This document shows positions 749-50,023 of a stretch of DNA of 64,000 bases, in pieces. How positions within the stretch are numbered: position 1 is the stretch's first letter; each line of letters opens with the position of its first letter. The notes beneath the pieces were generated by a model that saw only the letters and a program-made list of their open reading frames with translations, did no database searches and had not been told where the DNA came from. A program made the translations under genes and the position numbers. This DNA is from Deltaproteobacteria bacterium (GTDB taxonomy: Bacteria; Myxococcota_A; Polyangia; Fen-1088), in the NCBI GenBank assembly GCA_033763315.1, contig JANRKS010000019.1:257018-321017 (forward strand), written 5' to 3'.

Positions 749-2632
749 ATGACCATGATCGACATGCTCGACGATGACGCCGACGATTTGAATGACGAAC
801 CTGGCGAACCTGAAGTGGTTGCCGCCGCGCCCAAACCGGGACGCAAGAAGCGCGCTGGCACAGGCGGCGACGATGGCGATGTGGAGCGCAAGAAGCGCGA
901 ACTCATCACCATGGGCAAGGCGAAGGGTTACCTCACATACGAGGAAGTCAACGACCACATGCCTGAAAGCATCGTGTCGTCCGACCAAATCGATGATTGG
1001 CTTTCTGCCCTGGGCGGTGAAGGCATCGAGATCGTCGAGAACAGTGCCAGTTCCACCAAGGGTGGCGATCGCGGGCTTCCCGAGGAAGAGCCTGAAGCCG
1101 AAGCAGAAGCGCGCGAAGAAGCTGAAGAGGACGAAGAGTTCTCGAAGAGCAACGACCCCGTGCGCATGTACCTGCGCAAGATGGGCTCAGTGTCGCTTTT
1201 GACCCGCGAAGGCGAAGTTGAGATCGCCAAGCGCATCGAAGACGGCGAACGGCGCGTGCTGCAGGTTGTGTTGAGTTCGCCGGTGGCGATCAACGAGATC
1301 ATCGACTTGGCCGAGAAGCTGCGCAAGCAGAAGATCCGGGTCAAAGAGGTCGTCAAAGACGCGGACGAAGAGGCCGAAGACTACGACGAGCAGTTCCACA
1401 TCGAACGCGTCTGCAAGGTCATCGACAAGGTTAAGAAGCACCAGCGCGAGATCGAGAAGCTGTTTGAAAAGGATGGCGACGGCAAGCTGCCATCCGAAGC
1501 CACGAAGAAGAAGCTCAAAAGCCAGGTCGACAAGCACAAGAACGAGATGTTCGAAGCGCTGCACGACCTGCGCATGAACAAAAAGCAGATCGACCGCATC
1601 GTCAATGTGCTCAAGAGCTTCGTGAGCCGCATCGAAACGGCGAACCGCGAAGTGGCCGAATGCGAGCGTCGTTCGGGCATGCCGATCAAGGAGCTGCGCA
1701 AAACGCTCAAAGAGCAGCGCTCGTCAGACGTGCGCAAGAAGGCGGTGGCCAAGAAGCTGGGCCTGCGTGCCGAAGAGCTGGAAGAGATGTCGCGCGTGAT
1801 CTTGAACGCGCAGAAGAAGGTCAAGACCGTTGAAGAAGAAACGGGCCTTGAAGAAAACGTTCTTCGTCACACCGTGCGCGAAATCGAAGACGGTGAACGC
1901 AACGCCGAGTTGGCGAAAGCCGAATTGGTTGAAGCGAATCTTCGTTTGGTGGTTTCAATCGCCAAGAAGTACACGAACCGCGGCTTGCAGTTCTTGGATC
2001 TGATTCAAGAGGGCAACATCGGCTTGATGAAGGCCGTTGATAAGTTCGAGTATAAGCGCGGCTATAAATTCTCCACCTACGCCACGTGGTGGATTCGCCA
2101 GGCGATCACACGCGCGATCGCCGATCAGGCCCGCACGATCCGCATCCCCGTACATATGATCGAAACGATCAACAAGCTGATTCGCACCAGCCGCTACTTG
2201 GTGCAAGAGCTTGGCCGCGAGCCCACGCCGGAAGAGATCGCGGACAAGATGGAATTGCCGATCGATAAGGTCCGCAAGGTGCTCAAGATCGCGAAAGAAC
2301 CGATCTCGTTGGAAACGCCGATCGGCGAAGAAGAAGATTCACACTTGGGCGATTTCATCGAAGACAAGAGCGTGATCTCGCCGTCAGACGCCGTGATCTC
2401 GATGAACCTGGCGGAACAAACGCGTCGCGTTTTGGCCACGCTCACGCCGCGCGAAGAGAAGGTGTTGCGCATGCGCTTTGGCATTGGCGAAAAGAGCGAC
2501 CACACTTTGGAAGAGGTGGGCCAAGACTTTGAGGTTACGCGTGAGCGTATCCGCCAAATTGAAGCCAAGGCTTTGCGCAAGTTGCGGCATCCGTCGCGCA
2601 GCAAGCGTCTCAAGAGCTTCATGGAAGGCTAG
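749..2632 (+). CDS. rpoD: RNA polymerase primary sigma factor sigma-70 (RpoD)
   Basis: Acidic region 1.1 and a non-conserved spacer. Region 2 reads '[43 protein letters not shown]'; regions 3 and 4 read '...[30 protein letters not shown]'. Confidence 0.96.
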
Positions 2633-2643
2633 CGGAGCCTCTG

Positions 2644-3179
2644 TGGACCGCCGTTATGCGGTGACCGTGGCGGGGCAACAGCTCCTGGTGAGCGTGCGCT
2701 CCGCCGGGAGCGACGCATACGATGTCACGGTGGCAGATGCGCCTGCCGTTCGGGTGCAACGCCGCGACCTTGGCCAGACCAGCAGCACCCGCTGGTCATG
2801 GCAAGGGGAGGGCGGCCTTGTGCGCGCCACGGTCGATAAGTTGGGCGCCGATCTTTCCGTGGCACTCAAAGGCCTCGACGTTGTGGCCAAGGTGGAGGAC
2901 GGTCGCAAAGCGCTGCTGCAGTCTTTGGGCTTGGCGCAGCCGCGAGGTCCCTCGGGGCCGCTGTCGCTGCGCACGCAGATTCCCGGGCGCGTCGTGAAGG
3001 TGCTCGTGGCGTTGGGTGCCACCGTGCAAGAGGGGCAGCCCCTGGTCGTGGTGGAGGCGATGAAGATGGAAAACGAAACGCGCGCGCCCCGGTCGGGTGT
3101 TGTGGCCGAATTGCCCTTGGCCGAAGGCACCACCGTTGAAGCGGGCGCCTGCTTGATCGTGCTTGCGCCTATGCCGTGA
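2644..3179 (+). CDS. Biotin/lipoyl-attachment (BCCP-like) domain protein with an uncharacterised ~100-aa N-terminal region
   Basis: C-terminal 'PLVVVEAMKMENETRAPRSGVV' is the EAMKM biotinylation motif. The ORF-track frame starts inside rpoD, so the start was placed at the GTG after the rpoD stop (start uncertain). Confidence 0.6.
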
Positions 3180-13508: not shown

Positions 13509-15332
13509 ATGAAAATCGTCTGCGAAGCCTGTGGCGCGAAGTACTCGATTTCGGACGATAAGGTCCGCGGAAAAGTCTTCAAGATTCGATGTAAGAAATG
13601 CAGCCACATCATTGTCGTGCGCGGCAACGAAGATGGCGTGCCCATGGAGGCAGAGCCGTCCGCGTCTGCTGACCTGCGCGCTCAACATTCGGCTGAGGCG
13701 CCCGCCGCCGAGGCGGAGGCGGTTTGGTACGTCGTCGTTGAGGGCGAACAGGTGGGCCCCCTGACCGAGGCCGACGTAGCCGCCCGTGTGAGCCGGGGCG
13801 AAATCACGGGCGAGACCTTCGCTTGGCGAGAGGGCATGGCCGACTGGATTCAGGTTTCGGCGATAGCAGAATTCGCGAACTCCTTGGCGGCGGCCCCCCC
13901 TTCAGGTGGCGGCGACGACGCGGACAGTCCGTTTGCACCTCAGCCCACGGCCGTTTACCCGCCAGGCACCGCCGAGAGCATCTTCGGCGATCCCGCCGAC
14001 GTGACGCCGGCGCCCCAGGCACAGCGCCCCTCGGGTGGTCGTTCAGAAGCAACAGAAGTGTTTGGCGCACCCACCGCGATCGGGAAACCTCCCGCGGGCC
14101 AAGATTTGTTCGCACCGCAAGCCATGGACGCCTTCTCGGCGCCCGCGCCCACGGCGGTCAGTCCGGTCAGCCACCACATGGCTCCTGTGGCCGCGCCTGT
14201 CTCGTCGGGGGGAGGCTTCTTCCCGGTGTCCGCGCCTTCGCCCGCCTCTGCAGGTGCCGGTGCGGGCCTGACGGGTCAGCGCTCCGAAAACTCGGTGCTG
14301 TTCTCCCTCTCCAACCTCGAATCGTTGGCTGGGTCAGGTTCGCCTTCGATCAGCAGCGCTCCGTTGTCCTCGGGCCGGGGGCTTTCCGCAGCGCCTGCAC
14401 CAGTCACCGAAGGCTCGGGCCTCATCGACATCCGCTCGATGGCGGCGATGACGCTCGGCAAGCAAACCGAACAGCCTTCCATGTTTGGTGGGATGCCTAT
14501 GTCGGCGCCCGAGCTGCCAACGTTCTCCGCGGCTCCGATCGCCCCCTTGGCGCCCATGATGCTGCCCACCCGGCAAAGCAGCGGCGTGCCGCCGTATGTG
14601 TGGGCGCTCGTGGTGCTCGTGGTGGTCGCGCTGGCTGGCCTGTCTTACATGATCTTGCGGCCAACCCCGCTGCCACCCGCACCGGTGGTGGTGGCAGCGC
14701 CGCCGGCACCTGTGCCCGCGGCCCCCGCGGAGCCGCCACCCACGCCTCAGGCCGCCCCCGCAGCCGCTGCGCCCGTCAAAGAGGAAGCTTTGCCTCCTCG
14801 CGAAGAGGCCGTGGTGCATGAAAAGGCCACCTCCAAAAAGCCTTCCAGCGGCTCGACGGGCTCGAAGAAGCCCGCCACGACGGCCAAGGCCGATCCAGAG
14901 CCCACAAAGGCTGAACCGGCTCCCAAAGCCGAACCAAAAGTGGAGGCCCCTGCACCGGCGAAGAAAGGCTCGCTGGACGATCTGTTGGCGGGCGCCATTG
15001 GCGGTGCGCCGAAAAAGGCGCCAGCACCGGCCGCCAGTCCAACACCCGCCGCGGAGCCTGCCAAGAAGGCCGGCCCCTTGGGCAAGTCAGACATCGTGAA
15101 GGGCATGATGGGCGTCATGCCGAAGACGAAGGCCTGCTACGACCAATACAAAGTGCCAGGCACGGCCAACGTGAACATCAAAGTGGACCCCAGCGGTCGT
15201 GTCGACAGCGCCGACGTCACGGGCAAGTTTGCCGGCACGCCCACGGGCGAGTGCGTGGAGAAGGCAGTGAAGACGGCGCGGTTCCCAGCGTCTGATGGCC
15301 TGACCTTCCCGTACCCGATTCCGCTCCGCTAA
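13509..15332 (+). CDS. GltJ/AgmX-like protein: N-terminal zinc-ribbon plus GYF-like (DUF4339) domain, TM helix, Pro/Ala-rich periplasmic region, and an AgmX/PglI (TonB-C-like) C-terminal domain
   Basis: 'CEACGAKYSI...IRCKKCSHII' zinc ribbon. 'WYVVVEGEQVGPLTEADVAARVSRGEITGETFAWREGMADWIQV' GYF-like domain. TM 'VWALVVLVVVALAGLSYMIL'. C-terminal 'KTKACYDQY...GECVEKAVKTARFP'. Confidence 0.75.
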   Translation: MKIVCEACGAKYSISDDKVRGKVFKIRCKKCSHIIVVRGNEDGVPMEAEPSASADLRAQHSAEAPAAEAEAVWYVVVEGEQVGPLTEADVAARVSRGEITGETFAWREGMADWIQVSAIAEFANSLAAAPPSGGGDDADSPFAPQPTAVYPPGTAESIFGDPADVTPAPQAQRPSGGRSEATEVFGAPTAIGKPPAGQDLFAPQAMDAFSAPAPTAVSPVSHHMAPVAAPVSSGGGFFPVSAPSPASAGAGAGLTGQRSENSVLFSLSNLESLAGSGSPSISSAPLSSGRGLSAAPAPVTEGSGLIDIRSMAAMTLGKQTEQPSMFGGMPMSAPELPTFSAAPIAPLAPMMLPTRQSSGVPPYVWALVVLVVVALAGLSYMILRPTPLPPAPVVVAAPPAPVPAAPAEPPPTPQAAPAAAAPVKEEALPPREEAVVHEKATSKKPSSGSTGSKKPATTAKADPEPTKAEPAPKAEPKVEAPAPAKKGSLDDLLAGAIGGAPKKAPAPAASPTPAAEPAKKAGPLGKSDIVKGMMGVMPKTKACYDQYKVPGTANVNIKVDPSGRVDSADVTGKFAGTPTGECVEKAVKTARFPASDGLTFPYPIPLR

Positions 15333-18944: not shown

Positions 18945-19433
18945 ATGAGCCACACCGCAGACGCACATTCCAAGTACGCACTTCCAAAATTCAAATCAGC
19001 CGCCTCCAGCCAAAAGCGTAACCAGAAGCTTGCGCTCGCTGGTGCTGGATTGGTGGTTGTCTGGATGATGGCGTTGGGTGCGGTTGCCTACAAGCGGCAC
19101 GCGGACGCCGAGGCGGCGACCCAAGCGGCTCTGCAGGTGCGCGCTGCCCAGGAAGCCATCGCATTGGCCGCGCAACACAGTGTGGCAGCGCCTGCTTCCG
19201 CTCCTGTGGCCGCACCCGCGGTGGCACCCAGCGCCCCGGTGGCGGTCGCAGCGGCCGCCCCAACAAAGCCGGCTAGCACCAGCCACCACAGGTCACACTC
19301 CTCTCCGCGCAGCAAGACGCGCACACTGGCGGCGCGTTCCACCAGTTCGAGCAAAGCCGTTGCCACCGCGTCGCCTTCGGCAAAGCGCATGAAGGACGAC
19401 CAGCTGGACGCGCTATTGAAGCAGTTTAAGTAG
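18945..19433 (+). CDS. Membrane-anchored Ala-rich hypothetical protein
   Basis: TM 'LALAGAGLVVVWMMALGAV' followed by Ala/Pro/Ser low-complexity sequence. Confidence 0.45.
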   Translation: MSHTADAHSKYALPKFKSAASSQKRNQKLALAGAGLVVVWMMALGAVAYKRHADAEAATQAALQVRAAQEAIALAAQHSVAAPASAPVAAPAVAPSAPVAVAAAAPTKPASTSHHRSHSSPRSKTRTLAARSTSSSKAVATASPSAKRMKDDQLDALLKQFK

Positions 19434-19741: not shown

Positions 19742-20482
19742 ATGCCCCAGCAGGAAAAGCACGCCGAAAACTCAGTTCTCTTTTCGCTGCAGGAACTGCA
19801 GAAGATGGAGGAGCAGCGCGTGGCCCAAGAGAAGGCCAGCGCACGCGCCAAAGAAGAGGCTGAACGGCGAGCGAAGGAGGACGCGGAACGCCGTGCCCGC
19901 GAGGCTGAAGAAGCGAAGATCCGGGCAGCCGAAGAAGGTCGACGCCGCGAAGAGGAAATGCGTCTGGCGGCGGAACGCGAAGAGCGCATTCGAATTGAAG
20001 AAGCCGAGCGCCGCGCCCGCATCGAAGCTGAAACGCGTTTGCGCGAGGAGCAGATGCGGCTTGAAGCTCAAGCCAAACAACACCGCAAATCAAATACGGG
20101 CGCGATCATCGGTGTGGCCGCGGCGTTGGTAATCGCGGGCGGTGCGGGCTTTTATTTCTATAACGCTCACGTCGAAGAGCAGCAGATGGCCATGCGCCGT
20201 CAGCAGCAAAAAGAAAAAGAAGAGGTTGAGGCGAAGCTGCGTGAGCAGGAAGCCAAGTACGCGGCGATGATCGCGGAAAAGCAAAAAGAGATCGACACCA
20301 CCAAGGACGAAGTGCAACGCGAGCGGTTGCGCCAAGAGCAACGGCGTTTGCAAGAGCAGCAAAGCCAAGTGGTGTCTTCGCGTCGCAAGAATGATGCGAA
20401 GGACGAGAAACCTGCCGCAAAGTCGAACGTGTATACCGGCAAGAAGAAGGACGTTAGCGACAATCCTCTAGAAGGCTTATAA
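19742..20482 (+). CDS. Charged coiled-coil (E/R/A-rich) membrane protein carrying an N-terminal 'ENSVLFSL' motif
   Basis: 'AENSVLFSLQELQKMEE', then 'AKEEAERRAKEDAERRAREAEEAK' repeats, with a TM 'AIIGVAAALVIAGGAGFYFY' mid-protein. Confidence 0.6.
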   Translation: MPQQEKHAENSVLFSLQELQKMEEQRVAQEKASARAKEEAERRAKEDAERRAREAEEAKIRAAEEGRRREEEMRLAAEREERIRIEEAERRARIEAETRLREEQMRLEAQAKQHRKSNTGAIIGVAAALVIAGGAGFYFYNAHVEEQQMAMRRQQQKEKEEVEAKLREQEAKYAAMIAEKQKEIDTTKDEVQRERLRQEQRRLQEQQSQVVSSRRKNDAKDEKPAAKSNVYTGKKKDVSDNPLEGL

Positions 20483-21813: not shown

Positions 21814-23625
21814 CTAGAGATCGTCGAAGCTGTCAGGCTTGTCGGGCTTATAGAGATCTTTCTCGCGATCGAAAAAGTCCTTCTCCAAAGCATCGAATTC
21901 GCCCGTTCTGGTTTTTGCGGCAAACGGATTGCTTTGCGGGCCCGTCTTGCTGCGAGCCGCGACTGGGGCGTTGGCCGAAGCCGCCAAGGGAATCGGGGTG
22001 CCGCGCGGGTTTGCCATGACCGGCGGCGCGGCAACGGGCGCCGGAGCGGGCGGTTCAAGCTCGGCCATCAGAGACGGATCAAGTTCAATGGAACCCGTGG
22101 GTCGTGAGGCCGCGGTCTTTGCCGCGCGGGGGGCCGTGGGGATTTCCAGCAAACCCGTGGTGCGGGGTGCGGGCGCTGCAATGACATTGATTGGCGCTGC
22201 TGCCGGGTCGGGTCGGGCAGCGGCGACGGGCCCGGGCGTTGTGGTGGCGGCCATCTGGGGCCGTGCAGGGGCTGCCGCTTCTAGGGCCGCCATCTCTTCC
22301 AGGTACTCGGGCGGCAAGTCGATCACCATCGAGGGGCGCGGCTTTACCGCTTTGTCTTCCGTGGACGACTTGGCCAACATTTCACCGCGCGTGACCCGAC
22401 CGGCTTCAGCGACTTCCGGGCGCTTGCCGACCGCCGTGGCTGCTGCAGCCATTGTGACCGTGCCGTTGGCGACGGGCGCGATAGGAGAGGCGGGTGAGGG
22501 CAGCGGGCCGGTGCTGCCGCTTTGGTACGAGACGGCCGGCGGGGCGTTTTGCACAGTGGGCACGGTGGCTTGCACCGGGGCCGCTGCGACCGGCGCTTGC
22601 GACAACGCTTCTAGATGAGCGGCCGCCAATACAGCCGCGTCGATGCGTTCGCGGTCCGATTCGCCTTTGAGCCAAGATTCCATCAGCGGGCTGGCCGCGG
22701 ACGTGGAGACGGCGGGGCGGGATTCCACGCCCTCTTTGCGCCGAATGGTTTGGGTGTCGACGAAGCGAGCGATGATCTTCAATGTGTCGAACACGCGGAA
22801 TGGACTTTCATCCAAGACGTCGCTGATGGATCGTTGACCGTCAAACAGACGCAGAACGGGGGCTACCTCGGAGGCAACTTCAACCGCGGGTGACGGCACC
22901 GGTTCGTAGACCGTTTGTGCGGATCCCAGCGCGCGGGCCGTGTGCGCGAAGTCGCGTAGGAAGCGTTCAACATCTTCCATCAGGGCTGGGCCTTTGCTGT
23001 TGAACTGGCCTCGGGCCGTGACGGCTTTGAATCGCACGTCGAGAGCGGCTTCCTCCCACAGCAAGAGCTGGTTCAAGGCTGGCGCGCCCGTGATGGTTCC
23101 GACCTGGGCTGTGCGCAGTTCGCCTTTGCAGATCTTCATCTCGCCTTTGCGGTTGGCCCGTTCCATCTGAACCACGGCCGACTGCTTGAGCGTTAAAAGC
23201 GTACGCAGCAAAAAGAACAAGCCGTATTCGGAGAGGGCACCTTGCACTGTGGGTTCTTTGCCGTCGCGGCGGGTGGCCGCGCGCAATCGGGTTGCGGTGA
23301 TGACATCCCGCAGGTAGGCCGGCACGGGTAAAAAGTCCACATTGGGTTGGTTGACGCTGGCGCGGCGGTGCTCCTCGCTTCCAAGCGCAACCACGGGCAG
23401 CCGGCTGCCGGTTGATAGCCCCTCGAGAACGAAGCGACTGGCCTCAGGGCTTTGGCGAAGCGTTACCACCACGACCTCAGGACGTTCGGCTTGCAGCTGC
23501 GCGAGGGCCTCGTCGTTCGAGGCGGCCGTCGAAACGCGCACCCCCTCTCGCTCAAAGCCAAAGGCCATCGCCGCAAGACCTTGAGGGTCGCTATCAATCA
23601 AAAGGACGTGAGATAGACGGGCCAT
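21814..23625 (-). CDS. Response-regulator-like protein: N-terminal (pseudo-)receiver, DUF4388 domain, long Pro/Ala-rich tail
   Basis: Receiver fold 'HVLLIDSDPQG...EVVVVTLRQ', with Thr at the usual phospho-acceptor Asp position. DUF4388-like 'LSEYGLFFLLRTLLTLKQSAVVQ'. Confidence 0.6.
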   Translation of the reverse strand: MARLSHVLLIDSDPQGLAAMAFGFEREGVRVSTAASNDEALAQLQAERPEVVVVTLRQSPEASRFVLEGLSTGSRLPVVALGSEEHRRASVNQPNVDFLPVPAYLRDVITATRLRAATRRDGKEPTVQGALSEYGLFFLLRTLLTLKQSAVVQMERANRKGEMKICKGELRTAQVGTITGAPALNQLLLWEEAALDVRFKAVTARGQFNSKGPALMEDVERFLRDFAHTARALGSAQTVYEPVPSPAVEVASEVAPVLRLFDGQRSISDVLDESPFRVFDTLKIIARFVDTQTIRRKEGVESRPAVSTSAASPLMESWLKGESDRERIDAAVLAAAHLEALSQAPVAAAPVQATVPTVQNAPPAVSYQSGSTGPLPSPASPIAPVANGTVTMAAAATAVGKRPEVAEAGRVTRGEMLAKSSTEDKAVKPRPSMVIDLPPEYLEEMAALEAAAPARPQMAATTTPGPVAAARPDPAAAPINVIAAPAPRTTGLLEIPTAPRAAKTAASRPTGSIELDPSLMAELEPPAPAPVAAPPVMANPRGTPIPLAASANAPVAARSKTGPQSNPFAAKTRTGEFDALEKDFFDREKDLYKPDKPDSFDDL

Positions 23626-25429: not shown

Positions 25430-27832
25430 CTAGATCGATTGGCCAGTTGATCGTTCGCTTTCTTTGGGGGTGGTCAACGCCCCTTGGCGCAAGTATTGGG
25501 ACGCCATTTCGTATTCAAAGAACGACACCATATTGGTTTGAAGAACCTGTAACCACAGGGCATGGGCCTCGTCTTCCTTGCCGTCGCCCAAGAGGCGCAT
25601 GGCTTGATAGAAATAAAGCTCCGCCTTGCGACCGGGGGTCGAGGCTTCCGCGGCCAACGCTTCGTAGGAAAGCTCGCCGAGCGCGAAGCGAGCCAAGCGT
25701 GCGTACCACATAGCGGTGCGCGACGGACGTAGCAACAGCGTTCGGTGCGCGATGAAGCCCAAATAAGCCTGCGCCGACGGATCGGGCGCGCGTCCGCTGC
25801 GACGGCTGAGATCGGCCAGCCACAGCGACGCGTAGACCTTAACGTATTCCGACACTGAATCGCCTCCCTTCGAAAGCGCGCGGCGGAAGACGTCGATGGC
25901 AGCGTCGAGCTCACCTCGCTGCACGAGGAAGGCGAGGGCATCGCTGTAAGTTTGATCGCGCGATTCATCTACCTCCACCGCCTCCGAAAACTTTTGCAAG
26001 GCCTCTTCGCGGCGACCCATGAGGTAGTAAAGGCGAGCGACCTCCACAGTGGCTTCAGCCGCGGGACCACGGCGACGGTTGCGCATGTGATCGATCATCA
26101 AGCGGTCCCAACCCAGCAGGGCCGTGCGGTAGGCTTTTTGTGCGTCGCCATCGCGGCCCGCCACGTCCAGCGCTTGCCCCAAAGCGCGCGCCAGCTTCGA
26201 ATGGCTTTCAACGTACCCAATGGTCTCTTGTGGGGGATCCTCGGGTTGGTGGCGTTCGAGGCCTTCGTGCAACACACGAACGGCGTCAGCAGCGTTGCCC
26301 TTTTTGAGCAAGAGGTTGCCGAACGCCAGCGTGGTGTCGACTTCGGCGTTTGGCTCTTGGGTGGCCTTCGCCAATATCGGCTCGGCTTTGGCGGTGAGGC
26401 CGGCGTCCACAAAGTTGCGCGCGAGCTCAAGCTCCACAGGTTTATCCGACAACCATTCGGCGGATTGCCCAAACTGTTGCCGGGCCTGCGCCATGCGGCC
26501 TCGCAAAGCTTCGGCATTCTTCAACGCAGGCCGTACGTCTTCTGGATCCATGCGCGCGCGGAAGAGCGCAAATTGCAGCTCGACCGTTTCTTTGGCGAGG
26601 CCTTCCAAATCTTCCTTGGCTGCGTTCTGCGTGCGCATCAGAGGTTCGGCCTCTTCAAGCAGCTCAAGCGCCAGCAAAGGCGATCCCACCAGGCGGCTCA
26701 CGCGCGATTGCAGCACCAACAGTTCGACGCTTTGGGGATGAAAGCGCAGGCCAAGTTCGAGCACCCGAAAGGCCGCCCAGGCATCCACACGGTCTGAAGA
26801 GGTGCCGCCCAACAAGGGTAGCTTGGGAAGGAACCGGCGCGCGAGGGCTGCGAAGTTGATCGGCGCGGGCTTGCTGGTTTTTGCGACTGCCTTGAGTAAG
26901 GTGCGCAAATCGGCGTCATCGCCTGGGCGGCCCGCGAGGGGGTCAATCGCCGTGAGGGCGCCGGATACGTCGGACGAGCGCAGATAAACCGCCGCAACGC
27001 TGGGGGCGAGCGTGGTGACGCTGTCGGCGTCTTCAATCATCTCTTCGCCGAACATTCCGGCGTGAGCGCCTCCACCCAAGGGTCGGCGTAGGCGGCCGGT
27101 CAACTGGTCGTGCCGATCGACCAACGTCTTTGCCAGGCGTTGTGTGAGCGCGGGGCTTGGCCAACGCCAGGCGACGTCTTCAAGCAAGCGGCGTGGCGAT
27201 GGCGGCGCTTCAAGTTGCGAGTTGCCTGCGGCGATCTCTTTGCCATTTTCTGCCCACGCCAACACGTCCTGTAACTCTTGGGTCCATCGTTTGGAATCAG
27301 GTTCAAGGACGGCGAGCACAGCCACAGCCAAGGCTGACTCTGCCTCGGCGCCTTGCGCACCAAACAACGTGCGAACCAGGTTTGCCGCGTGCAGGAGCCG
27401 CTTGTGATCGAGGGCGGCCAGGTTCAAAGGCTGCGACAGCTCTACAGGGTGAAACAACGTGGCTGCGTCTTGAAAGCTGCTGCGCACGAGTTTGTCGTAC
27501 TCAGCATTGACCAAACCCACGCCGCCGTCGCGCAGGCTCTCGGGGGTGATCTTTTCGAGGGGGGCCAGCAAATAGGCGAGCAAGCGCGATCGCAAGGCTT
27601 GCCGCTCTGGTGCATAGACGGGCAGGGCCTGAAACGTTAGCCGCGCTTCCAAAAACTCCTCTTCGACGCGCGGCTGTGGCGTTTCGTTGGCCAGCTTCGC
27701 GTAGTTTTGCGCAACGTTCGAGAGCGGCGGTTTGGGAGCGACTTGGTGATGAGCACAGGCTGTGAAGATGACGGCCAAGGCCAACACCGGAGCCAGCCGC
27801 CCCATTCCGGTGCACAACCGGCTGATTTGCAT
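25430..27832 (-). CDS. Secreted TPR-repeat protein (about 790 aa)
   Basis: Signal peptide 'APVLALAVIFTACA'. Repeated 'A..Y..A..L/G' TPR-like helices throughout. Confidence 0.55.
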   Translation of the reverse strand: MQISRLCTGMGRLAPVLALAVIFTACAHHQVAPKPPLSNVAQNYAKLANETPQPRVEEEFLEARLTFQALPVYAPERQALRSRLLAYLLAPLEKITPESLRDGGVGLVNAEYDKLVRSSFQDAATLFHPVELSQPLNLAALDHKRLLHAANLVRTLFGAQGAEAESALAVAVLAVLEPDSKRWTQELQDVLAWAENGKEIAAGNSQLEAPPSPRRLLEDVAWRWPSPALTQRLAKTLVDRHDQLTGRLRRPLGGGAHAGMFGEEMIEDADSVTTLAPSVAAVYLRSSDVSGALTAIDPLAGRPGDDADLRTLLKAVAKTSKPAPINFAALARRFLPKLPLLGGTSSDRVDAWAAFRVLELGLRFHPQSVELLVLQSRVSRLVGSPLLALELLEEAEPLMRTQNAAKEDLEGLAKETVELQFALFRARMDPEDVRPALKNAEALRGRMAQARQQFGQSAEWLSDKPVELELARNFVDAGLTAKAEPILAKATQEPNAEVDTTLAFGNLLLKKGNAADAVRVLHEGLERHQPEDPPQETIGYVESHSKLARALGQALDVAGRDGDAQKAYRTALLGWDRLMIDHMRNRRRGPAAEATVEVARLYYLMGRREEALQKFSEAVEVDESRDQTYSDALAFLVQRGELDAAIDVFRRALSKGGDSVSEYVKVYASLWLADLSRRSGRAPDPSAQAYLGFIAHRTLLLRPSRTAMWYARLARFALGELSYEALAAEASTPGRKAELYFYQAMRLLGDGKEDEAHALWLQVLQTNMVSFFEYEMASQYLRQGALTTPKESERSTGQSI

Positions 27833-43095: not shown

Positions 43096-45207
43096 TTACG
43101 ACAGGTCGGTCTTGCGCGCGTCCCCGCGGGTCGGCGCTTGGTTGTGTGAAGCGGTTGGGCGTTGGCTGGTGTCGCTGGGAAGCGCGGCCGAAAACCGGCT
43201 TTCTTCTTCGTCGAACTCGCTGCGGAATAAACTTTGGATGAGCTGCGCGAGATTGACGGCGTGATTGCGCACGTGGGGCTCCACATCCGCCAAAAACGCC
43301 AGCGCGTTTGGATATCGCTGATCCGGCTGCACCATGAGGGCACGGCCCACGATGTGGTTCAGCGGTTCGGGCAGTGATGCGATTTGGGCAAGCATCGATT
43401 CGTCGGGGCCGGTGGCGGCCCGCACGAGCAGTTCGTAGGGGGTGCCACCATGATAAAGGGGCTGCCCTGCGGCGGCGTAATACATCACAAGGCCCAGCGA
43501 GAACAGGTCAGCGCGCGCATCGAGTGCCGTGCCGCGCGCTTGCTCGGGGCTCATGAAGCTGACATTGCCTTTGACCACGCCTTGCTCGGTTTGCGTCACC
43601 CGGCCTTCAGCTTTCACGATGCCGAAATCGAACAACTTCACCTCGCCGCCGGCCGAAATCAAAATGTTGCTTGGCGAAACATCGCGGTGAACCACGCCCA
43701 AAGGCCGGCCATCGTCGCCTCGGCGGTTGTGTGCGTAGTCGAGCGCCTTAAGCGTTTCTGCCATCACGTGCAAAATCACAGGCACGGACAAGGCGCGGCC
43801 TTGTGTTGCGATCGATTTGCTCACCGTGCGGCCCAGATCTCGACCGAGGATGTATTCGGTGGCTAAGTAATACTCGTCACCGACGCGGCCGAAATCAAAC
43901 ACGGGAATGATGTTGGAGTGCACCATCAACGAGCCCAGTTTTGCTTCGTCGATGAATTGCGCCACCACGCTGCTTTCGTTGGCCAGCTCGGGGCGCAACC
44001 GTTTGACCACGAACCGCCGGCGAAAGCCTTCGGCGCCAACCGTGATCGCCGTAAAAACTTGGGCCATGCCGCCTTCGCCCAACATGGACACGATGGTGTA
44101 GCGCCCAAACACACGTGAATTGCGTGCGGGAGGATCGAATGTGGCTGTGGCCGCGTACGGTGAGGGTGCGTCTTGTTCAAGCGCCACCGCGCTGCCTGAG
44201 GTGGGGGACATGCGGTTGCGTCCCATGCCTGGCGCCGTTGCGCTCATTGCCGGGGCTGGCGCTGTGGTTAAAGGCGGCGGTGTGCCCTCACTGGTCTGGG
44301 TGGCCACAGGCGCTTGCCCGCCGAGCGGCGCGCCTTGGCGGAACGCGAAGAAGATCGACAAAAACGCGAGCAAACCTGCACCAGCAAATAGGGCGCTCTT
44401 GTTGATGGTGGCCGCCTGCGCCGCCTCCGTCGCGCTGGCATGTGTGTTGGCGTAGACCCACATCCATAAGCCCGGCCCCAAGCTTCGCTTCGCGGCGGCC
44501 CATTCTCCGTGCGGGCTGGTCACAGGCGCCGCCAGCGTTTCCTGCCCCACAAGCCCGGCCATTTGCACCTGAGCCTGATCTGGCCCTGCGAGCGTCAGTG
44601 CCTTGGTGCCGTTCGACACCATCACAGCGCCACCCGCGCGGCGTGAAATCTGCTCAAGCGCGTCGTTGTTCAACGGCGCCGCCAAAATCAGCACGGCAGG
44701 CAAGCGCCGCGAGGGCAGGGAGATGCGCTCGCCCGCGGCCACCCATGCCTCGCCAGCGAAGACGAGGGTATCGGAGGCCAAGCCGCGGCTGCGCACCTTT
44801 TGAATCAAGGCGGACGCGTCCACCGTTTCGGCGCCCAAGACCAATTCGGGGCTGCGCTCGCTGAGCGACAGAACAACAACGCCAAAATCGCGGCGGAATG
44901 GCTCCCACCACACCTCGCGGTCAAACGCGTCTTTGAGTGTGGCGGTGATGCTGGAGGGGTCGTCGGCCTCGCGCAGGATCGACAAGATCTTCATGAGCTC
45001 GGGCCGGCTGCTGGCGGCGGCCACGCGTGGCTCAAGGGTGTGGAGCTGCGTGGCCAGCGCGTCTTCGAGTTTGGCCAAAGCTTGATCGGCCGCGCGCGAT
45101 GCGTCCGTCTGAGCCCGGGCGTCCCGCCGTAGATCGATGCTGGGCACCGAGGCCGCCGCGGCTCCCAGCGCTGCCAGCGCAACGAGCACGCCCAAGAATC
45201 GCTTCAC
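43096..45207 (-). CDS. Receptor-like Ser/Thr protein kinase: signal peptide, ~290-aa periplasmic domain, TM helix, C-terminal Hanks kinase domain
   Basis: Kinase motifs 'LGEGGMAQVF', 'VVKRL', 'HRDVSPSNILI', 'DFG' and 'SPEQ' lie in the C-terminal 300 aa. TM 'ALFAGAGLLAFLSIFFAF'. Confidence 0.8.
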   Translation of the reverse strand: MKRFLGVLVALAALGAAAASVPSIDLRRDARAQTDASRAADQALAKLEDALATQLHTLEPRVAAASSRPELMKILSILREADDPSSITATLKDAFDREVWWEPFRRDFGVVVLSLSERSPELVLGAETVDASALIQKVRSRGLASDTLVFAGEAWVAAGERISLPSRRLPAVLILAAPLNNDALEQISRRAGGAVMVSNGTKALTLAGPDQAQVQMAGLVGQETLAAPVTSPHGEWAAAKRSLGPGLWMWVYANTHASATEAAQAATINKSALFAGAGLLAFLSIFFAFRQGAPLGGQAPVATQTSEGTPPPLTTAPAPAMSATAPGMGRNRMSPTSGSAVALEQDAPSPYAATATFDPPARNSRVFGRYTIVSMLGEGGMAQVFTAITVGAEGFRRRFVVKRLRPELANESSVVAQFIDEAKLGSLMVHSNIIPVFDFGRVGDEYYLATEYILGRDLGRTVSKSIATQGRALSVPVILHVMAETLKALDYAHNRRGDDGRPLGVVHRDVSPSNILISAGGEVKLFDFGIVKAEGRVTQTEQGVVKGNVSFMSPEQARGTALDARADLFSLGLVMYYAAAGQPLYHGGTPYELLVRAATGPDESMLAQIASLPEPLNHIVGRALMVQPDQRYPNALAFLADVEPHVRNHAVNLAQLIQSLFRSEFDEEESRFSAALPSDTSQRPTASHNQAPTRGDARKTDLS

Positions 45208-45289: not shown

Positions 45290-46399
45290 TTAAGGCGCGC
45301 CGAACGTGGTTTCGCCCTCGCTGACGAGGTTCTGCGCGTCGGGCGACAACGTCATCCAGCCTGCGGTGAACTCGCTGCGCGCGAAGGTTTGCACCGGTGA
45401 GGGGGCGGCGCCCGCTGTGCCTGCTTCGCCGCCAGAGCGACCGAGATCGAGCCATCCCACCAGTTTGTTGCGATACAGGTACTCAATGCGCACCACAACT
45501 TTGGGCTCACCAGCCGCGGGCTTTTCGCCTTTGCCCAATACCTCTGCCGGGAACAGCGCGAACACGCGCTCATGCCAGTTGCCGGCGGTTTGGTCGGGCT
45601 TATCGGGAGCGGATGCGGGAAGCAGTTCACCACCCGGACGGCCGTCGAAGCGGCGGAATTGAAACTCCTTCTTCTTGCCGCTGGCTGTGATCACCACTTT
45701 ATCGACGTCGGCCATGATGAAGCCGTGCAACTTGCGCTGGGTCATGTTGGTTCGCGCGGCCTGAAAGTCAGATAGGATCTGACGAGCCACGATGTAAACC
45801 ATGCCGTCTTCGTCGTCGCGCACGTAGGGATCCGTGCCGCCTGGAGGCGCCGGGGCCAAGGTGAAGGTTTTTGTTACGCCCTTGAAGGTGACCTTCAAGC
45901 GCTTTTTGGGCTGATCAAGACCCAGGTCTTTGACCTTTTCAGCGTCAAGCTTGCCAAGGGCGCGTGAAGCGGAAAACGGCGAAAACAGATCCCACATTTT
46001 TTCGGCGCTCTCGTTGCCGCGCACCAGCCGTTCGGGCACCGCTGTTTGCACCATCGGGTGGCCCGACGGTAAGGCGACGTTCGAGCCTTCTTTGCCCGCG
46101 AGCCGCATCCACACAGCGCGACCCGCGTCTTCCTTCGTGCTTGTGAGCTCAACCCAATCGCGCACCTTCGGTTCGGCCGGCGCCGGCGCGTCCTTAGGTT
46201 TGGCGTTTTTGTCGTCCGCCTCGGGCTTGGCCACAGGCTCAAGCTCTTCGTAGCGAATGCTTTGCAATTCGCCTTTGGTGATGTCGAGAATGTAGGCTTG
46301 GCCATTGTCGAGCGAGGGCTCGCGTTGCCATGTGAAATAGGCGGCGATCAATCCCGCCAGGGCCAGCAATCCCTGAGTGGTGGCGGCTCGGCGGTTCAT
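45290..46399 (-). CDS. DUF4340-like protein (partner of GldG-type ABC auxiliary proteins)
   Basis: N-terminal TM anchor; composition and length match DUF4340. 4-bp overlap with gldG-like. Confidence 0.55.
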   Translation of the reverse strand: MNRRAATTQGLLALAGLIAAYFTWQREPSLDNGQAYILDITKGELQSIRYEELEPVAKPEADDKNAKPKDAPAPAEPKVRDWVELTSTKEDAGRAVWMRLAGKEGSNVALPSGHPMVQTAVPERLVRGNESAEKMWDLFSPFSASRALGKLDAEKVKDLGLDQPKKRLKVTFKGVTKTFTLAPAPPGGTDPYVRDDEDGMVYIVARQILSDFQAARTNMTQRKLHGFIMADVDKVVITASGKKKEFQFRRFDGRPGGELLPASAPDKPDQTAGNWHERVFALFPAEVLGKGEKPAAGEPKVVVRIEYLYRNKLVGWLDLGRSGGEAGTAGAAPSPVQTFARSEFTAGWMTLSPDAQNLVSEGETTFGAP

Positions 46400-48321
46400 T
46401 GTGAATCCTCCTGCTTGGCAACGGCATTCGTCGCCGGGGGCGCTTGCGGGGGCTCGGCTTTCGTCACGGCCTTGCGTGCCTTGCGGCTGCGGCGTGTGAA
46501 CAGCAACCCGAAACCCACAACCAGCGCCGGTGCCAGAACAACGCTGCCATAAAACCAGCCCAAGTCTTGTTTGCGGGTATGCACGATGGGCACGTCTTCT
46601 TCGTTGTTGATGCGTCCAGAAATGCTCTCTTCGCCGCCCAGCCAGCGCACGGCATCGACGAACATCGCAGCGTTGCCTTGGTTGCGCACAGCCAGATCGG
46701 TCAGCGCATCCGAATCGGCCAGCACAACCGCGCGGCCTTCTTCTTCAGGCAATACGGCGCTGGCCGTGCGTTTGGTTACCACCGCTGCCAACTCATAAGC
46801 GCGACGAACTTCCGTGCCGCTGTCGAACTCGAAATTCCCGTTCACGTCATTCCACGTCTTGGCGTCGGCGTGAATCGTGAAGCGACGGTTGACGAGGCCA
46901 CCGGGATCGGTGCCGTTGTCCAGCGAGCCGGTTGTGGGAAACACCACGGGCAAGCGGCGCCCGTACTTTGACAGGGTGGTGACCGCCACGTGCGACGAGT
47001 AATTCGCGGAAATGAGGTTCACCCGATCTGATGTGGCGAATGTGCGGGTGGCGTAGATCTGGTCATGCGCCAAATTTGTGGTGCTGAATGTTAAGCCCAA
47101 GTGGTTCAGCAGGTTGTCGAACTTTTGGCCGGACTCCGGATCCAACGCCAACAACACACGTCCCTTCCGATCGATGTAGCGTTCGATCGACGTGGCTTCT
47201 TCAGGGCTAAAAGGCTCCTTCGGGCCGATCACCATGACGATCGTGGCATCATCGGGCACAGCAGACCCCAGCCCATCGGCCAAGCCCAAATCGCGCACTT
47301 CGTAACCTTGGTCCAACAGCAAGCCACGAATGAGGCCAATCGTGTCGCGCTTGTCTGTGTCGCCCATGCTGCTGGGCGAGCGTTCGCCGTGGCCTTGGGT
47401 GAGGTAGGCCACGCGCGCGGCGCGGGTAACCCCCAGAAGGCGTTTGTTCACTTCTTCATCCAAGCGCTTGAGTTGATCGCGTGCGCGTTCCATCTCAAGC
47501 GGAATGGCGATCTGTTCGCGCAGCTTGTCGCGGCCCACCACGATGATGCCGTTGCCGCTGACGCCAAGCTCTTTGGCTTTGGCTGGATTGATGGCCTGAT
47601 CGTAAGTTTCAACCACCAGAAGCTTGGACTTTTGCTTCAAGTCGTCGAAGTAACTTTCGACCTCCTCGTGCACTTCGTTGGCCGGCGGAAAGAACAGGTA
47701 AACCTGAACAGGCTTGTCGAGGGCGGCCACGATCTTGAGCGTGCTTTCGCCACCTTTGGCCACGCGGAAGTAGGAAAGATCCTTTTTCACGTCGCGCTCG
47801 GACGCCACGAAAGCGAACGAGAACACGAACACCAGGGCGAATCCGATGCCCAACCCGGACGTCATCGCGGCGCGCACGCGCGGCAGGTCACGCACCGGGG
47901 CGCGGGCCATGCTGGCCAACGACAATTCAACAAAGACCACCGGTAAAGTGCCCAACACCAAACACGCAGGCCATAGCGTTTCCAATACGGCAGCCACGCG
48001 GGGCCACGTTTTCTGCAACGTGTGGCCCGTGAGATGGAAATAGACGTCGGACGAGAAGAAATAGGCCAGCAACGCCACGGCGCCCAGCGCATAGAGCGTG
48101 AGCAACGCCTTTTCCGGTCCTCGATGGGCAGAGTCGCGTTTGCCGAGGCGGGCCGCTTGCCAACCCGCACCTGCGACCACGGCGAGAACGCCGGCCACCG
48201 TGGCGACGATGGACGCCGGGCCGCTGGTCAGCAGCCGCTCGCCCACGAACACCAAAATCAACCCTGCGCCGTAGGTCAGCGAGGGCAGTGCCGAATACGC
48301 TTGTTTGCTTGCTAACGCCAT
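46396..48321 (-). CDS. GldG-family ABC-transporter auxiliary component
   Basis: Several N-terminal TM helices, a large periplasmic domain and a C-terminal TM. Sits in a gldA/gldF-like context. Confidence 0.65.
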   Translation of the reverse strand: MALASKQAYSALPSLTYGAGLILVFVGERLLTSGPASIVATVAGVLAVVAGAGWQAARLGKRDSAHRGPEKALLTLYALGAVALLAYFFSSDVYFHLTGHTLQKTWPRVAAVLETLWPACLVLGTLPVVFVELSLASMARAPVRDLPRVRAAMTSGLGIGFALVFVFSFAFVASERDVKKDLSYFRVAKGGESTLKIVAALDKPVQVYLFFPPANEVHEEVESYFDDLKQKSKLLVVETYDQAINPAKAKELGVSGNGIIVVGRDKLREQIAIPLEMERARDQLKRLDEEVNKRLLGVTRAARVAYLTQGHGERSPSSMGDTDKRDTIGLIRGLLLDQGYEVRDLGLADGLGSAVPDDATIVMVIGPKEPFSPEEATSIERYIDRKGRVLLALDPESGQKFDNLLNHLGLTFSTTNLAHDQIYATRTFATSDRVNLISANYSSHVAVTTLSKYGRRLPVVFPTTGSLDNGTDPGGLVNRRFTIHADAKTWNDVNGNFEFDSGTEVRRAYELAAVVTKRTASAVLPEEEGRAVVLADSDALTDLAVRNQGNAAMFVDAVRWLGGEESISGRINNEEDVPIVHTRKQDLGWFYGSVVLAPALVVGFGLLFTRRSRKARKAVTKAEPPQAPPATNAVAKQEDSQ

Positions 48322-49037
48322 CGTCGGGCCTCCAGCACGCGCGTGGCGGCGAACAACGAGAAATAGATCAAGCCCAGGTAATACACGATGTCTCGCAGGT
48401 GAATCACGCCTCGGCCAAACGGCGTAAAGTGTTTATGAAACAAGGCGATCGACAGGAAGAACTCACTGAACGGCCGTTCGGTCACGCGCGCCAACATCCA
48501 GGCCATCAACAGCACCGACACGAGCACCGCTGAGATGATGATGGCGAGCACTTGGTTCTTGCCAATCGCCGAGCCAAACGTGCCTATCGCCAAGGTTGAA
48601 CCGCCCAACAACATGAGTCCCATGTAGCCGGCGGCCAGGTGGCCCCAGGAGATCTTGCCGTTGACCAAGATCATCAGCGGCACGTAAAGCGTCGCCAAGA
48701 TCATCAACCACAAAAACACCAGCGCGCCGATGTATTTGCCCAAGATGATCTCGCGATCGCGCACGGGTGAAGAAGCCAAAAGCGCGATGGTGCCCGTTTG
48801 CTTTTCTTCGGCCAACAGGCGCATCGAAAGCACCAAACTGCAGATCATGGTGGCGCCACTTGTGAAAAAGAAGAAGTTGTAGAGCACCTCGGCTGAACGG
48901 CGTTCCGATTCACCCATCGCCATGGCGTGGAACAAGATGCCCACCGACAACAAGAAAATGCTGGCGATCACGTAGCCGCTCATCGATCGGAAATAGGCGC
49001 CAAGCTCACGCAGCGCGATCAGTTTTACGTTCTTCAT
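48312..49037 (-). CDS. ABC-2 type permease (GldF-like)
   Basis: Six TM helices, 241 aa. Start overlaps the ATPase stop. Confidence 0.75.
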   Translation of the reverse strand: MKNVKLIALRELGAYFRSMSGYVIASIFLLSVGILFHAMAMGESERRSAEVLYNFFFFTSGATMICSLVLSMRLLAEEKQTGTIALLASSPVRDREIILGKYIGALVFLWLMILATLYVPLMILVNGKISWGHLAAGYMGLMLLGGSTLAIGTFGSAIGKNQVLAIIISAVLVSVLLMAWMLARVTERPFSEFFLSIALFHKHFTPFGRGVIHLRDIVYYLGLIYFSLFAATRVLEARRWR

Positions 49038-50023
49038 CAGGGGCTCCCCGGGGGCGTTGGCGCCGACGCTTGTGCTTGCGTGGGCTTATCGGCTGGCGCT
49101 TCACCCGCCGCCAATTTCAGGAACACGGACTCTAGGCGCGACGCCGCACGTCCCATTTGAAGCAGGTCAACCCCCGCGCCCACCAAGGCGCGGGCCAGCT
49201 GTGGCCGCAAGTCGGCGGTGGAACTGACCCGCAACGTGAATTCATCGCCGGACGTGTGAACGACCGTTACGCTGTTCACACCGGTGACGGCTTGCAGGCA
49301 CAACGTGGCCGCACCCAGATCGCCCTTGAGCGTGAAGTCAGCTTCGCCTGCGCGTTCCATCAACGTCGCCAGTTCAGACTCGGTGCCGCGTGCCACGATT
49401 TGCCCGCCCTGGATCACCAGCAAGCGATCGCAGGTTTGGCTGATTTCTGCCAAGAAGTGGCTTGAGATCAGCAGGGTATGCTCACCTCGCAGGCCGCGGA
49501 TGAGGTTGCGCATCTCAACGATCTGAACGGGGTCAAGGCCGCTTGTGGGTTCGTCCAAGATCAACAGCGATGGCTTGTGCACCAAAGCTTGTGCCAAGCC
49601 CACGCGTTGCCGGTAGCCGTGAGACAGCGCGCTGATAAGCTCGTCGTCCACATCCACAAGCCCCGTTTTCTCCTCAGCTTCGGCGACGCGCTTTTGCGCA
49701 TCAACCGCACTGACGCCGCGCAATTGAGCGGCGAACGATAGATAACGGCCCACCGTCATCTCGTTATAAAGGGGCGGCGTGTCGGGCAGAAAACCGATCC
49801 TGCCGCGCACTTCGTGGGCTTGGTCAACGGCGTTTAGGCCATCCACCATCACGGTGCCTGAGGTTGGTAACAGCACGCAGCTCAGGATCTTCAATGTGGT
49901 GCTTTTTCCGGCACCATTGAGCCCCAAAAACCCGACGACCTCACCCGATTCGATATCGAAATCGAGGTCGCGAATCGCTGCATGCTCCCCGTAATACTTC
50001 GTCAATCCGCGAACTTGAATCAT
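49037..50023 (-). CDS. ABC transporter ATP-binding protein (GldA-like)
   Basis: Walker A 'GLNGAGKST'; signature 'LSHGYRQRV'; Walker B 'LLILDEPTSGLD'. Confidence 0.9.
   Translation of the reverse strand: MIQVRGLTKYYGEHAAIRDLDFDIESGEVVGFLGLNGAGKSTTLKILSCVLLPTSGTVMVDGLNAVDQAHEVRGRIGFLPDTPPLYNEMTVGRYLSFAAQLRGVSAVDAQKRVAEAEEKTGLVDVDDELISALSHGYRQRVGLAQALVHKPSLLILDEPTSGLDPVQIVEMRNLIRGLRGEHTLLISSHFLAEISQTCDRLLVIQGGQIVARGTESELATLMERAGEADFTLKGDLGAATLCLQAVTGVNSVTVVHTSGDEFTLRVSSTADLRPQLARALVGAGVDLLQMGRAASRLESVFLKLAAGEAPADKPTQAQASAPTPPGSP

Follow-up and report, generated by a model that had tools for sequence, protein, structure and literature searches.

A conserved ENSVLFSL peptide shared by a GltJ-like protein and an unrelated helical membrane protein of Polyangia

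A 64-kb stretch of genome labelled "Deltaproteobacteria bacterium" (contig JANRKS010000019.1, positions 257,018–321,017; hereafter the window, meaning the whole stretch analysed) encodes two inner-membrane proteins that carry the same eight residues, ENSVLFSL: a 607-residue protein that we call GltJ-like, after the gliding protein GltJ, and an uncharacterised, mostly helical protein of 246 residues that we call P2. The motif is real and conserved and, among the matches listed in our searches, is confined to two architectures and one lineage, the myxobacteria and mainly the Polyangia. Because it is conserved in both families, is confined to them, has a disordered cytoplasmic setting and is the only thing that the two proteins share, it has the appearance of a short linear docking motif. 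We therefore lean towards reading ENSVLFSL, on the evidence of sequence comparison, as the core of such a motif for a cytoplasmic partner, displayed by two unrelated bitopic proteins. We infer that the motif binds something and that both copies bind the same thing.

Translation places copy 1 (14286–14309, plus strand) at residues 260–267 of the GltJ-like protein and copy 2 (19766–19789, plus strand) at residues 9–16 of P2, just where an earlier sequence-only reading of the window had reported an identical octamer. The contexts are RSENSVLFSLSNLESLA in the open reading frame (ORF) 13509–15332 and AENSVLFSLQELQKMEE in the ORF 19742–20482; peptides spanning the motif are QRNENSVLFSLSNLQALA and MSERRENSVLFSLKELRRIEDD, and the segments 14256–14345 and 19742–19831 translate as AGAGLTGQRSENSVLFSLSNLESLAGSGSP and MPQQEKHAENSVLFSLQELQKMEEQRVAQE, respectively. 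At the DNA level the copies agree at 18 of 24 positions, and none of the six mismatches alters an amino acid. The identity has thus been kept at the protein level, and neither a DNA repeat nor recent gene conversion accounts for the copies. No third copy was found in a six-frame pattern search of the window, relaxed patterns included. By itself the window is no proof of significance, since at least one shared 8-mer occurs in about 15% of residue shuffles of its proteins (P ~0.15). Two 8-mers are common to different ORFs among 51 non-overlapping candidate ORFs (21,557 residues). The other one, VVHRDVSP, lies in the catalytic-loop region of two Ser/Thr kinases (43096–45207 and 58786–60426, both on the minus strand) and is a case of ordinary paralogy.

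Conservation was followed in 120 listed relatives of each protein. Every GltJ-like relative, down to about 40% identity, contains QR[HSN]ENSVLFSL[SA]NL[EQ].LA and, 30–50 residues downstream, a second motif, EGSGLIDIR[AS]MA. In the window protein the conserved island around copy 1 extends from R258 to A274 by its conservation columns (14280–14330, plus strand), and the second motif, EGSGLIDIRSMA, occupies residues 301–312 (14409–14444, plus strand), 34 residues downstream of copy 1. Invariant columns include R258, E260–L267, N269, L270, L273, G302–I308, M311 and A312. The ten-residue mean conservation is 0.98 for ENSVLFSL (residues 261–270) and 0.97 for the second motif; elsewhere in the family it is 0.1–0.4 in the disordered flanks, about 0.75 in the GYF domain and 0.98 in the core of the zinc ribbon (ZnR). 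All 120 P2 relatives carry [DE]NSVL[FTKI][SA]L.EL at residues 5–10, in the variants ENSVLFSL (62 sequences), DNSVLKSL (35), ENSVLTSL (16), ENSVLKSL (6) and ENSVLIAL (1). The extended N-terminal motif of P2, ENSVLFSLQELQKMEEQR (19766–19819, plus strand), is defined by invariant columns and predicted to be helical; invariant in this family are N10, S11, V12, L13, L16, E18, L19, E23 and R26. The second motif, SGLIDIR, is absent from P2.

When the two family profiles were compared with hhalign, "errENSVLfSLKELR" aligned with "QRHENSVLFSLSNLe" over 15 columns (E = 1.9e-6, probability 90%) and nothing else was matched, which rules out global homology and makes the motif a module and not the remnant of such homology. 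The sequence-only reading had taken the two carriers to be unrelated, and this comparison agrees; it had also named a lack of enrichment or conservation in orthologs as the observation that would tell against the motif, and conservation proved complete among the listed relatives of both families. Its exact 8-mer, however, is not what the two families have in common, which is R-x-E-N-S-[VA]-L-x-[SA]-L-x-x-L, as the F and the second S drift in P2. Thus, in 15 loci with both genes, the GltJ-like copy reads ENSVLFSL in every one, while the P2 copy reads ENSVLFSL, ENSVLTSL, ENSVLIAL, DNSVLIAL, ENSALTAL, ENSALIAL, ENSALLAL or ESSALTAL. This variation suggests E-N-S-[VA]-L-x-[SA]-L-x-x-L as the common functional core, beyond which the GltJ-like copy is under additional constraint.

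A DNA-pattern scan with GARAAYTCNGTNCTNTTYTCNCTN covered one genome per species (185,579 species), with about 35 chance matches expected by our own estimate from information content. It gave at least 119 stretches. The 120 matches listed comprise 97 GltJ-like proteins, 15 P2 proteins and 8 chance-like matches, so that 112 of 120 fall in the two families; none of these 112 comes from cultured Myxococcia. The 97 are ZnR–GYF–motif–transmembrane (TM) proteins which, where the C-terminus lay within the slice, mostly end in a TonB-C-like domain and in a few cases in a small Cys-rich tail. The eight chance-like matches are open frames of 9–302 codons (six of them under 70 codons) from Oscillospiraceae, Saprospiraceae, Thermoplasmatota, Promineifilaceae, Cytophagales, Morganella, Sphaerochaetaceae and Ruminococcaceae. 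Specifically labelled real matches among those listed are from Sorangium, Chondromyces, Polyangium, Plesiocystis, Nannocystis, Haliangiales, Kofleriaceae, Sandaracinaceae and unnamed Myxococcota, and many others carry the generic labels "Deltaproteobacteria", "Proteobacteria" or "Pseudomonadota" of metagenome-assembled genomes (MAGs). A chance identity of two 8-mers, of the sort that the residue shuffles produce, has a negligible probability: the conservation data rule it out, with every listed relative of each family carrying the motif, a profile–profile E value of the order given above, and this concentration of genome matches in two families.

A profile of the cassette from the motif to the TM helix (142 positions) was further searched against 1.84 billion cluster representatives and matched 883 at E ≤ 1e-3 and 427 at E ≤ 1e-10, mostly proteins of 550–650 residues with the cassette at about residue 200–290. 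Among 136 newly returned 50%-cluster representatives, the motif was recognisable in 128 and SGLIDIR in 122; 112 of the 128 have exact ENSVLFSL, and the remaining 16 show conservative changes such as ESSVLFSL, DNSVLFSL and ENSALFSL. Across 873 kb of fetched loci, a degenerate pattern picked up additional P2 variants and nothing else. A motif widespread in many families is ruled out for this sample, as only the two families and their paralogues occur among the matches listed and in the 873 kb. Paralogous GltJ-like subfamilies exist, some without SGLIDI (Sorangium type) and some with a small Cys-rich tail replacing TonB-C. In two loci, L028 (nt ~2722–2744, minus strand) and L055 (nt 2023–2045, minus strand), the protein has ENSVLFSL, SGLID[IL], a TM helix and TonB-C and lacks both ZnR and GYF, which suggests that the cassette can function without either domain in the same chain. 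One of these two proteins has an N-terminus of acidic repeats in place of ZnR and GYF.

The GltJ-like protein (13509–15332, plus strand) is built from a ZnR (residues 1–38), a GYF domain (73–126), a disordered cytoplasmic region (~130–360), a TM helix at residues 364–383 (362–383 in AlphaFold2; 14598–14657, plus strand), a Pro/Ala-rich periplasmic linker and a domain resembling the TonB C-terminal domain (CTD; ~524–607). An NCBI MAG protein labelled "Deltaproteobacteria bacterium" (P0121 in our set) has exactly the same sequence (100% identity). Pfam recognises Zn_ribbon_4 (1–35) and GYF_2 (73–122), NCBIfam adds weak matches to the tail of NF033768 (AgmX/PglI C-terminal) and to TonB_C, and the closest solved relatives found by PDB sequence search are the GYF (7z3c) and ZnR (7zok) domains of Myxococcus xanthus GltJ. 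In the AlphaFold2 model (120 sequences) ZnR, GYF and the TM helix are confident, and the C-terminal domain (~520–607) has a predicted local distance difference test score (pLDDT) of 93–98; Foldseek returned the GYF structure of GltJ and numerous C-terminal domains of TonB (9dc4_T, 1u07, 2gsk_B; probability 1.0, TM-score ~0.6 normalised to the target). Residues ~130–360 are disordered in the same model, with ENSVLFSL as coil at pLDDT <50 and neither helix nor strand. ENSVLFSL shows two hallmarks of short linear motifs, namely a conserved island in fast-evolving disorder and reuse in otherwise unrelated proteins, the cassette proteins without ZnR and GYF included. Other short elements were seen in this disordered region as well: the invariant mini-motifs D199-L200-F201 (consensus GGDLFA; 14103–14111, plus strand) and [DE]-L-P-x-F (ELPTF; 14511–14525, plus strand), and a near-invariant FSPxAPVLL that precedes the TM helix.

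P2 (19742–20482, plus strand) has no family in Pfam or NCBIfam; PF28533, listed for one of its relatives, was unmatched in the Pfam copy used. After the N-terminal motif come a highly charged helix of some 100 residues (D/E/K/R make up 57% of residues 17–114), a TM helix (120–140), periplasmic helices and a C-terminal DNPLEGL. AlphaFold2 (109 sequences, mean pLDDT 81) predicts helices at residues 3–114, 121–186 and 190–219, so that the motif forms the N-terminal tip of a confidently predicted helix some 110 residues long. KQHRK before the TM helix and acidic residues after it fit an N-in topology. The cytoplasmic placement of the motif in the GltJ-like protein rests on the published topology of GltJ (PMC11135422, PMC11761067), and with both proteins N-in, both copies lie on the cytoplasmic side, which bears out the sequence-only reading on this point. 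Its further placement of copy 1 in the cytoplasmic linker stands as far as the compartment is concerned; the segment is the one between GYF and TM, not the ZnR–GYF linker studied in M. xanthus. The distance from motif to TM helix varies little in either family, with a median of 91 residues (86–112) in the GltJ-like family and 112 residues (108–115) in P2.

At the other end of P2, the C-terminal peptide [DN][DN]PL.GL is conserved and predicted to be periplasmic (here DNPLEGL, 20459–20479, plus strand); in the Kofleriaceae type the C-terminus reads C..NPL..GC. An 800-residue TPR protein with a lipoprotein-like signal (Cys26; 25430–27832, minus strand) is found near P2 in several lineages and could be a periplasmic partner of this tail. 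Some Kofleriaceae-type loci (L006, 4958–5725; L200, 1276–1989) contain a second P2 paralogue in tandem, whose N-terminal motif is degenerate and reads RESSVLVSLRELRAIEDDR or TETSILASLAELKSIEQQR, the latter resembling the SVLASL of true GltJ described below.

In another explanation, the same N-capped amphipathic helix in the GltJ-like protein and in P2 would zip in register like a short parallel coiled coil, so that the two proteins would bind each other, or themselves, with no third-party partner. The hydrophobic residues at i, i+1, i+4 and i+7 (V, L, L, L) and the direct continuation of the P2 motif into the long AlphaFold2 helix are consistent with this, parallel coiled coils naturally pair identical sequences, and the genes are adjacent in many lineages (within 0.3–2 kb in Nannocystaceae, despite differing intervening genes). 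Against it, the invariant E, N, S, F and S of the GltJ-like copy exceed what a coiled-coil seam needs, F changes to T, K or I in P2 while the GltJ-like copy stays fixed, the GltJ-like motif is a segment of about 15 residues in Gly/Ser/Pro-rich disorder with no predicted helix, and the genes are unlinked in Kofleriaceae. We regard such self-pairing as unlikely, if somewhat less so than the alternatives that follow.

Judged by its architecture, the GltJ-like protein is a GltJ homologue: like GltJ proper (NF033761; M. xanthus MXAN_4862), it has a ZnR, a GYF domain, a disordered region, a TM helix, a Pro-rich linker and a TonB-CTD-like domain. Unlike GltJ proper, it matches the NF033761 equivalog in three stretches with 106.5 bits, below the cut-off of 450; its gene follows serA–hisZ–purA and is not beside gltI, the neighbour of the GltJ gene in the G1 gliding cluster (PMC3169522); and its ZnR–GYF linker has about 35 residues without the MglA motif, compared with about 95 residues that include this motif in GltJ. 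GltJ itself is required for gliding and binds AglZ, MglA-GTP and MglB. As it departs from GltJ in equivalog score, linker motif and gene context, we call it GltJ-like and not GltJ.

In M. xanthus GltJ (AgmX), the disordered linker contains a discrete motif (L86–T107) that binds MglA-GTP and ZnR (Attia et al., 2024; PMC11135422). From GltJ fragments of Cystobacterineae and the gltJ locus of Cystobacter fuscus, this linker motif is GIF(S/G)GVEDDEIGAVFDQVL, between ZnR and GYF, and was read from the C. fuscus locus as GIFGGVEDDEIGAVFDQVL. It is the closest functional analogue of ENSVLFSL, in that both are short conserved peptides in a disordered cytoplasmic part of a ZnR–GYF–TM–TonB-C protein. 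The two differ in sequence and in site (ZnR–GYF in GltJ, GYF–TM for ENSVLFSL), which rules out their identity, and the GltJ motif is not known in a second family. A subgroup of the linker motif reads GENSIFSDVDDDEIGAAFESAL, a faint resemblance to ENSVLFSL that was not counted, and a regular-expression search of the window protein found no DEIGAVFDQV-like motif.

The GltJ system also suggests an explanation within one chain, in which the motif is a ligand of the GltJ-like protein's own ZnR (or GYF) and acts as an autoinhibitory latch, with the P2 copy coming from a second chain as competitor or client. There is a precedent, as the ZnR of M. xanthus GltJ binds its own linker motif and MglA-GTP competes for it (PMC11135422). 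Furthermore, the ZnR–GYF linker of the window protein consists of about 35 unconserved residues (conservation 0.1–0.4), so that a ZnR ligand must be sought elsewhere, and the ZnR is as conserved as the motif. The AlphaFold2 monomer weakens the idea, however, with no docking of the motif onto ZnR or GYF, and the motif is retained in proteins with neither domain (P2, L028, L055). The known ZnR ligand is moreover of the DEIGAVFDQV type, unlike ENSVLFSL, and the conserved D[VL]FA mini-motifs of the same region come nearer to this ZnR/MglA ligand (…GAVFDQ…) than ENSVLFSL does. A latch of this kind seems to us a rather unlikely explanation.

A third alternative gives the motif a role common to both families that involves no docking: it might mark the protein for degradation or processing, direct membrane-protein biogenesis or sorting, or form an amphipathic helix that binds the membrane. 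The two carriers are alike in being bitopic and N-in and in their spacing from motif to TM, and the P2 motif lies at the extreme N-terminus, where some degrons act. The GltJ-like motif, in contrast, is internal, about 260 residues from the N-terminus; the hydrophobic moment (0.18–0.46) and mean hydrophobicity (−0.25 to 0.24), from a crude calculation, are low to moderate for a membrane helix; and no known degron, clamp-binding QL[SD]LF or sorting motif fits, with none turning up in literature searches. We consider these roles improbable.

To our knowledge, ENSVLFSL fits no catalogued motif class. It is like eukaryote-style short linear motifs and molecular recognition features in being a conserved island of 8–15 residues in disorder, in its reuse in unrelated proteins and in its helical propensity in one context. 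Full-text literature searches with the strings SVLFSL, NSVLF, ENSVL and SGLIDI returned nothing relevant. The beta-clamp motif QL[SD]LF was rejected on the invariant Asn where Gln is needed and because 58 of the 120 P2 relatives have T, K or I in place of Phe; resemblances to ssrA/SspB-like, FtsZ C-terminal-peptide-like and ParB N-peptide motifs were considered and dropped as unsupported.

True GltJ appears to hold a degenerate counterpart of the cassette. The 2024 study worked with Nt1–222 and did not dissect residues 223–377 (PMC11135422), a region of which the GltJ papers (PMC11135422, PMC11761067) give no description. A homology search with the M. xanthus ZnR and GYF returned short fragments and no full-length GltJ. 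In C. fuscus GltJ, the sequence after GYF runs ...SGWKPSAASVLASLVKEENEAL...(32 residues)...AASGLLDVPPP...(~75 residues)...TM, which places degenerate collinear counterparts, SAASVLASL (SVLASL) and ASGLLDV (SGLLDV), in the region 223–377. The cassette profile aligned with both elements in register, weakly and in a single sequence (0.7 bits, E = 0.02). The two-motif arrangement thus probably goes back to the ancestor of the GltJ family and has stayed invariant in the Polyangia proteins while becoming degenerate in GltJ proper, although the correspondence is no more than suggestive. The gltJ gene used here (GCA_049060065.1; L120, 6001–8000) is frameshifted into at least three frames, probably through an assembly error, and its protein was pieced together by hand. 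The link to motility regulators and M. xanthus drawn by the sequence-only reading is weak in this light, with no glt/agl cluster, 106.5 bits against the 450-bit cut-off and only SVLASL in true GltJ.

With TonB and TolA transducers the GltJ-like protein shares an N-in single TM helix, a Pro/Ala-rich periplasmic spacer and a TonB-CTD fold at the C-terminus, but differs in its large cytoplasmic N-terminus with ZnR, GYF and short motifs and in a TM helix without His. No MotA_ExbB or ExbD family match (exbBD, tolQR, aglRQS) was obtained in any ORF scanned in the window, which contains no agl, glt, exb or tol motor genes, and the cognate motor of the GltJ-like protein may be encoded elsewhere.

The two genes lie in a housekeeping region with rpoD, a gene for a PilZ protein, parB and parA, and later serA, hisZ and purA, which the GltJ-like gene follows. 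Next, on the opposite strand, lies an operon with two unknown ORFs (311 and 193 residues) and the genes for an LPG_synthase_TM protein and CpsB, and then come P2, pyrE, an unknown ORF, a REC-like protein, a GCS2 ligase and the TPR lipoprotein; the conserved neighbours of unknown function have no Pfam or NCBIfam family. The block purA–GltJ-like–CpsB–P2–pyrE recurs in dozens of genome and metagenome loci, and the Nannocystaceae keep the pair close with other genes in between.

Several observations count against a common docking partner and have to be weighed with the conservation. The P2 copy drifts while the GltJ-like copy is fixed, so that the constraint on the two is not identical, which is unexpected for one pocket fitting both equally. 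Weak, fast-exchange contacts within one GltJ-like chain may be compatible with the monomer model. In two Kofleriaceae MAGs the two genes are on separate contigs, and since the block is lineage-conserved, slowly rearranging and housekeeping in nature and the linkage is not universal, gene proximity is weak evidence of coupling. Clustering of gene neighbourhoods gave no recurrent cytoplasmic candidate beside the purA-linked orthologues. The proposal of a docking motif for a common partner, as first made from the sequence, is thus supported in part: the conserved island in disorder and its presence in two architectures speak for it.

Other features of the neighbourhood were noted in passing. In 19 genome loci (e.g. 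L115, 3450–4928; L010, 3206–4753), GltJ-like paralogues that are not linked to purA (Sorangium, Polyangiaceae and Sandaracinaceae types) adjoin a bitopic protein that consists of an exported domain at the N-terminus, a single TM helix and, at the C-terminus, three zinc-ribbon repeats of the form CxxC...C..G. Directly upstream of P2, a candidate ORF of 162 residues (18945–19433, plus strand), with one predicted TM helix, an Ala/Ser-rich tail and no family match, overlaps the end of the CpsB gene on the other strand. Downstream of P2 and kept in the same gene block, a 603-residue protein (21814–23625, minus strand) has a weak receiver-domain match at residues 7–54, a segment that is DUF4388/PATAN-like by eye and a long disordered Pro/Ala-rich tail. 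Further away, four genes at 45290–50023 (minus strand) encode DUF4340, ABC_transp_aux, an ABC-2 permease and an ABC ATPase, a set that we take to resemble the GldA/F/G-type "gliding-associated" ABC transporter arrangement.

Under the docking-motif reading, N-in single-pass proteins would display the consensus R-x-E-N-S-[VA]-L-[F/x]-[SA]-L-x-x-L in the cytoplasm, about 90–110 residues from the membrane. GltJ-like transducers would present it together with EGSGLIDIR.MA as a cassette in the disordered tether upstream of the TM helix, and in P2 it would cap the charged helix of about 110 residues. The order of V and L at i and i+1 and L at i+4 and i+7 after E-N-S is consistent with an N-capped amphipathic helix, into which the peptide most likely folds on binding and which would then dock into a groove of one cytoplasmic partner, with the GltJ-like protein and P2 either co-recruited to that partner or in competition for it. 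Considerably more speculative is the idea that a single conserved hub in the cytoplasm, for example a small GTPase, a scaffold of the cytoskeletal or bactofilin type, or the cytoplasmic side of a Tol/Exb/Agl-type motor, uses the motif as a handle to engage two proteins that span the envelope, holding each at a set distance from the membrane. The GltJ-like protein would serve as a TonB-like transducer, and P2, with its helix of about 16 nm, as a rigid "ruler". If true, this would define a new trans-envelope module common to the Polyangia, and SVLASL/SGLLDV in residues 223–377 of M. xanthus GltJ would be its remnant and a third docking site of the gliding focal-adhesion machinery.

Few docking peptides have been mapped in the disordered parts of bacterial membrane proteins. 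In the GltJ family a single example is well studied, the MglA-binding linker of GltJ, and it proved to be the switch that assembles the gliding focal adhesion (PMC11135422). What we describe is a second, much more strongly conserved motif, with its companion SGLIDIR, in an unstudied part of the cytoplasmic region of the GltJ family, and the same peptide heads the uncharacterised P2. The finding is a clean, testable lead more than a surprise. A partner of the motif could show the role of the widespread GltJ-like transducers of Polyangia that lie outside the gliding cluster, and whether residues 223–377 of M. xanthus GltJ hold another interaction site.

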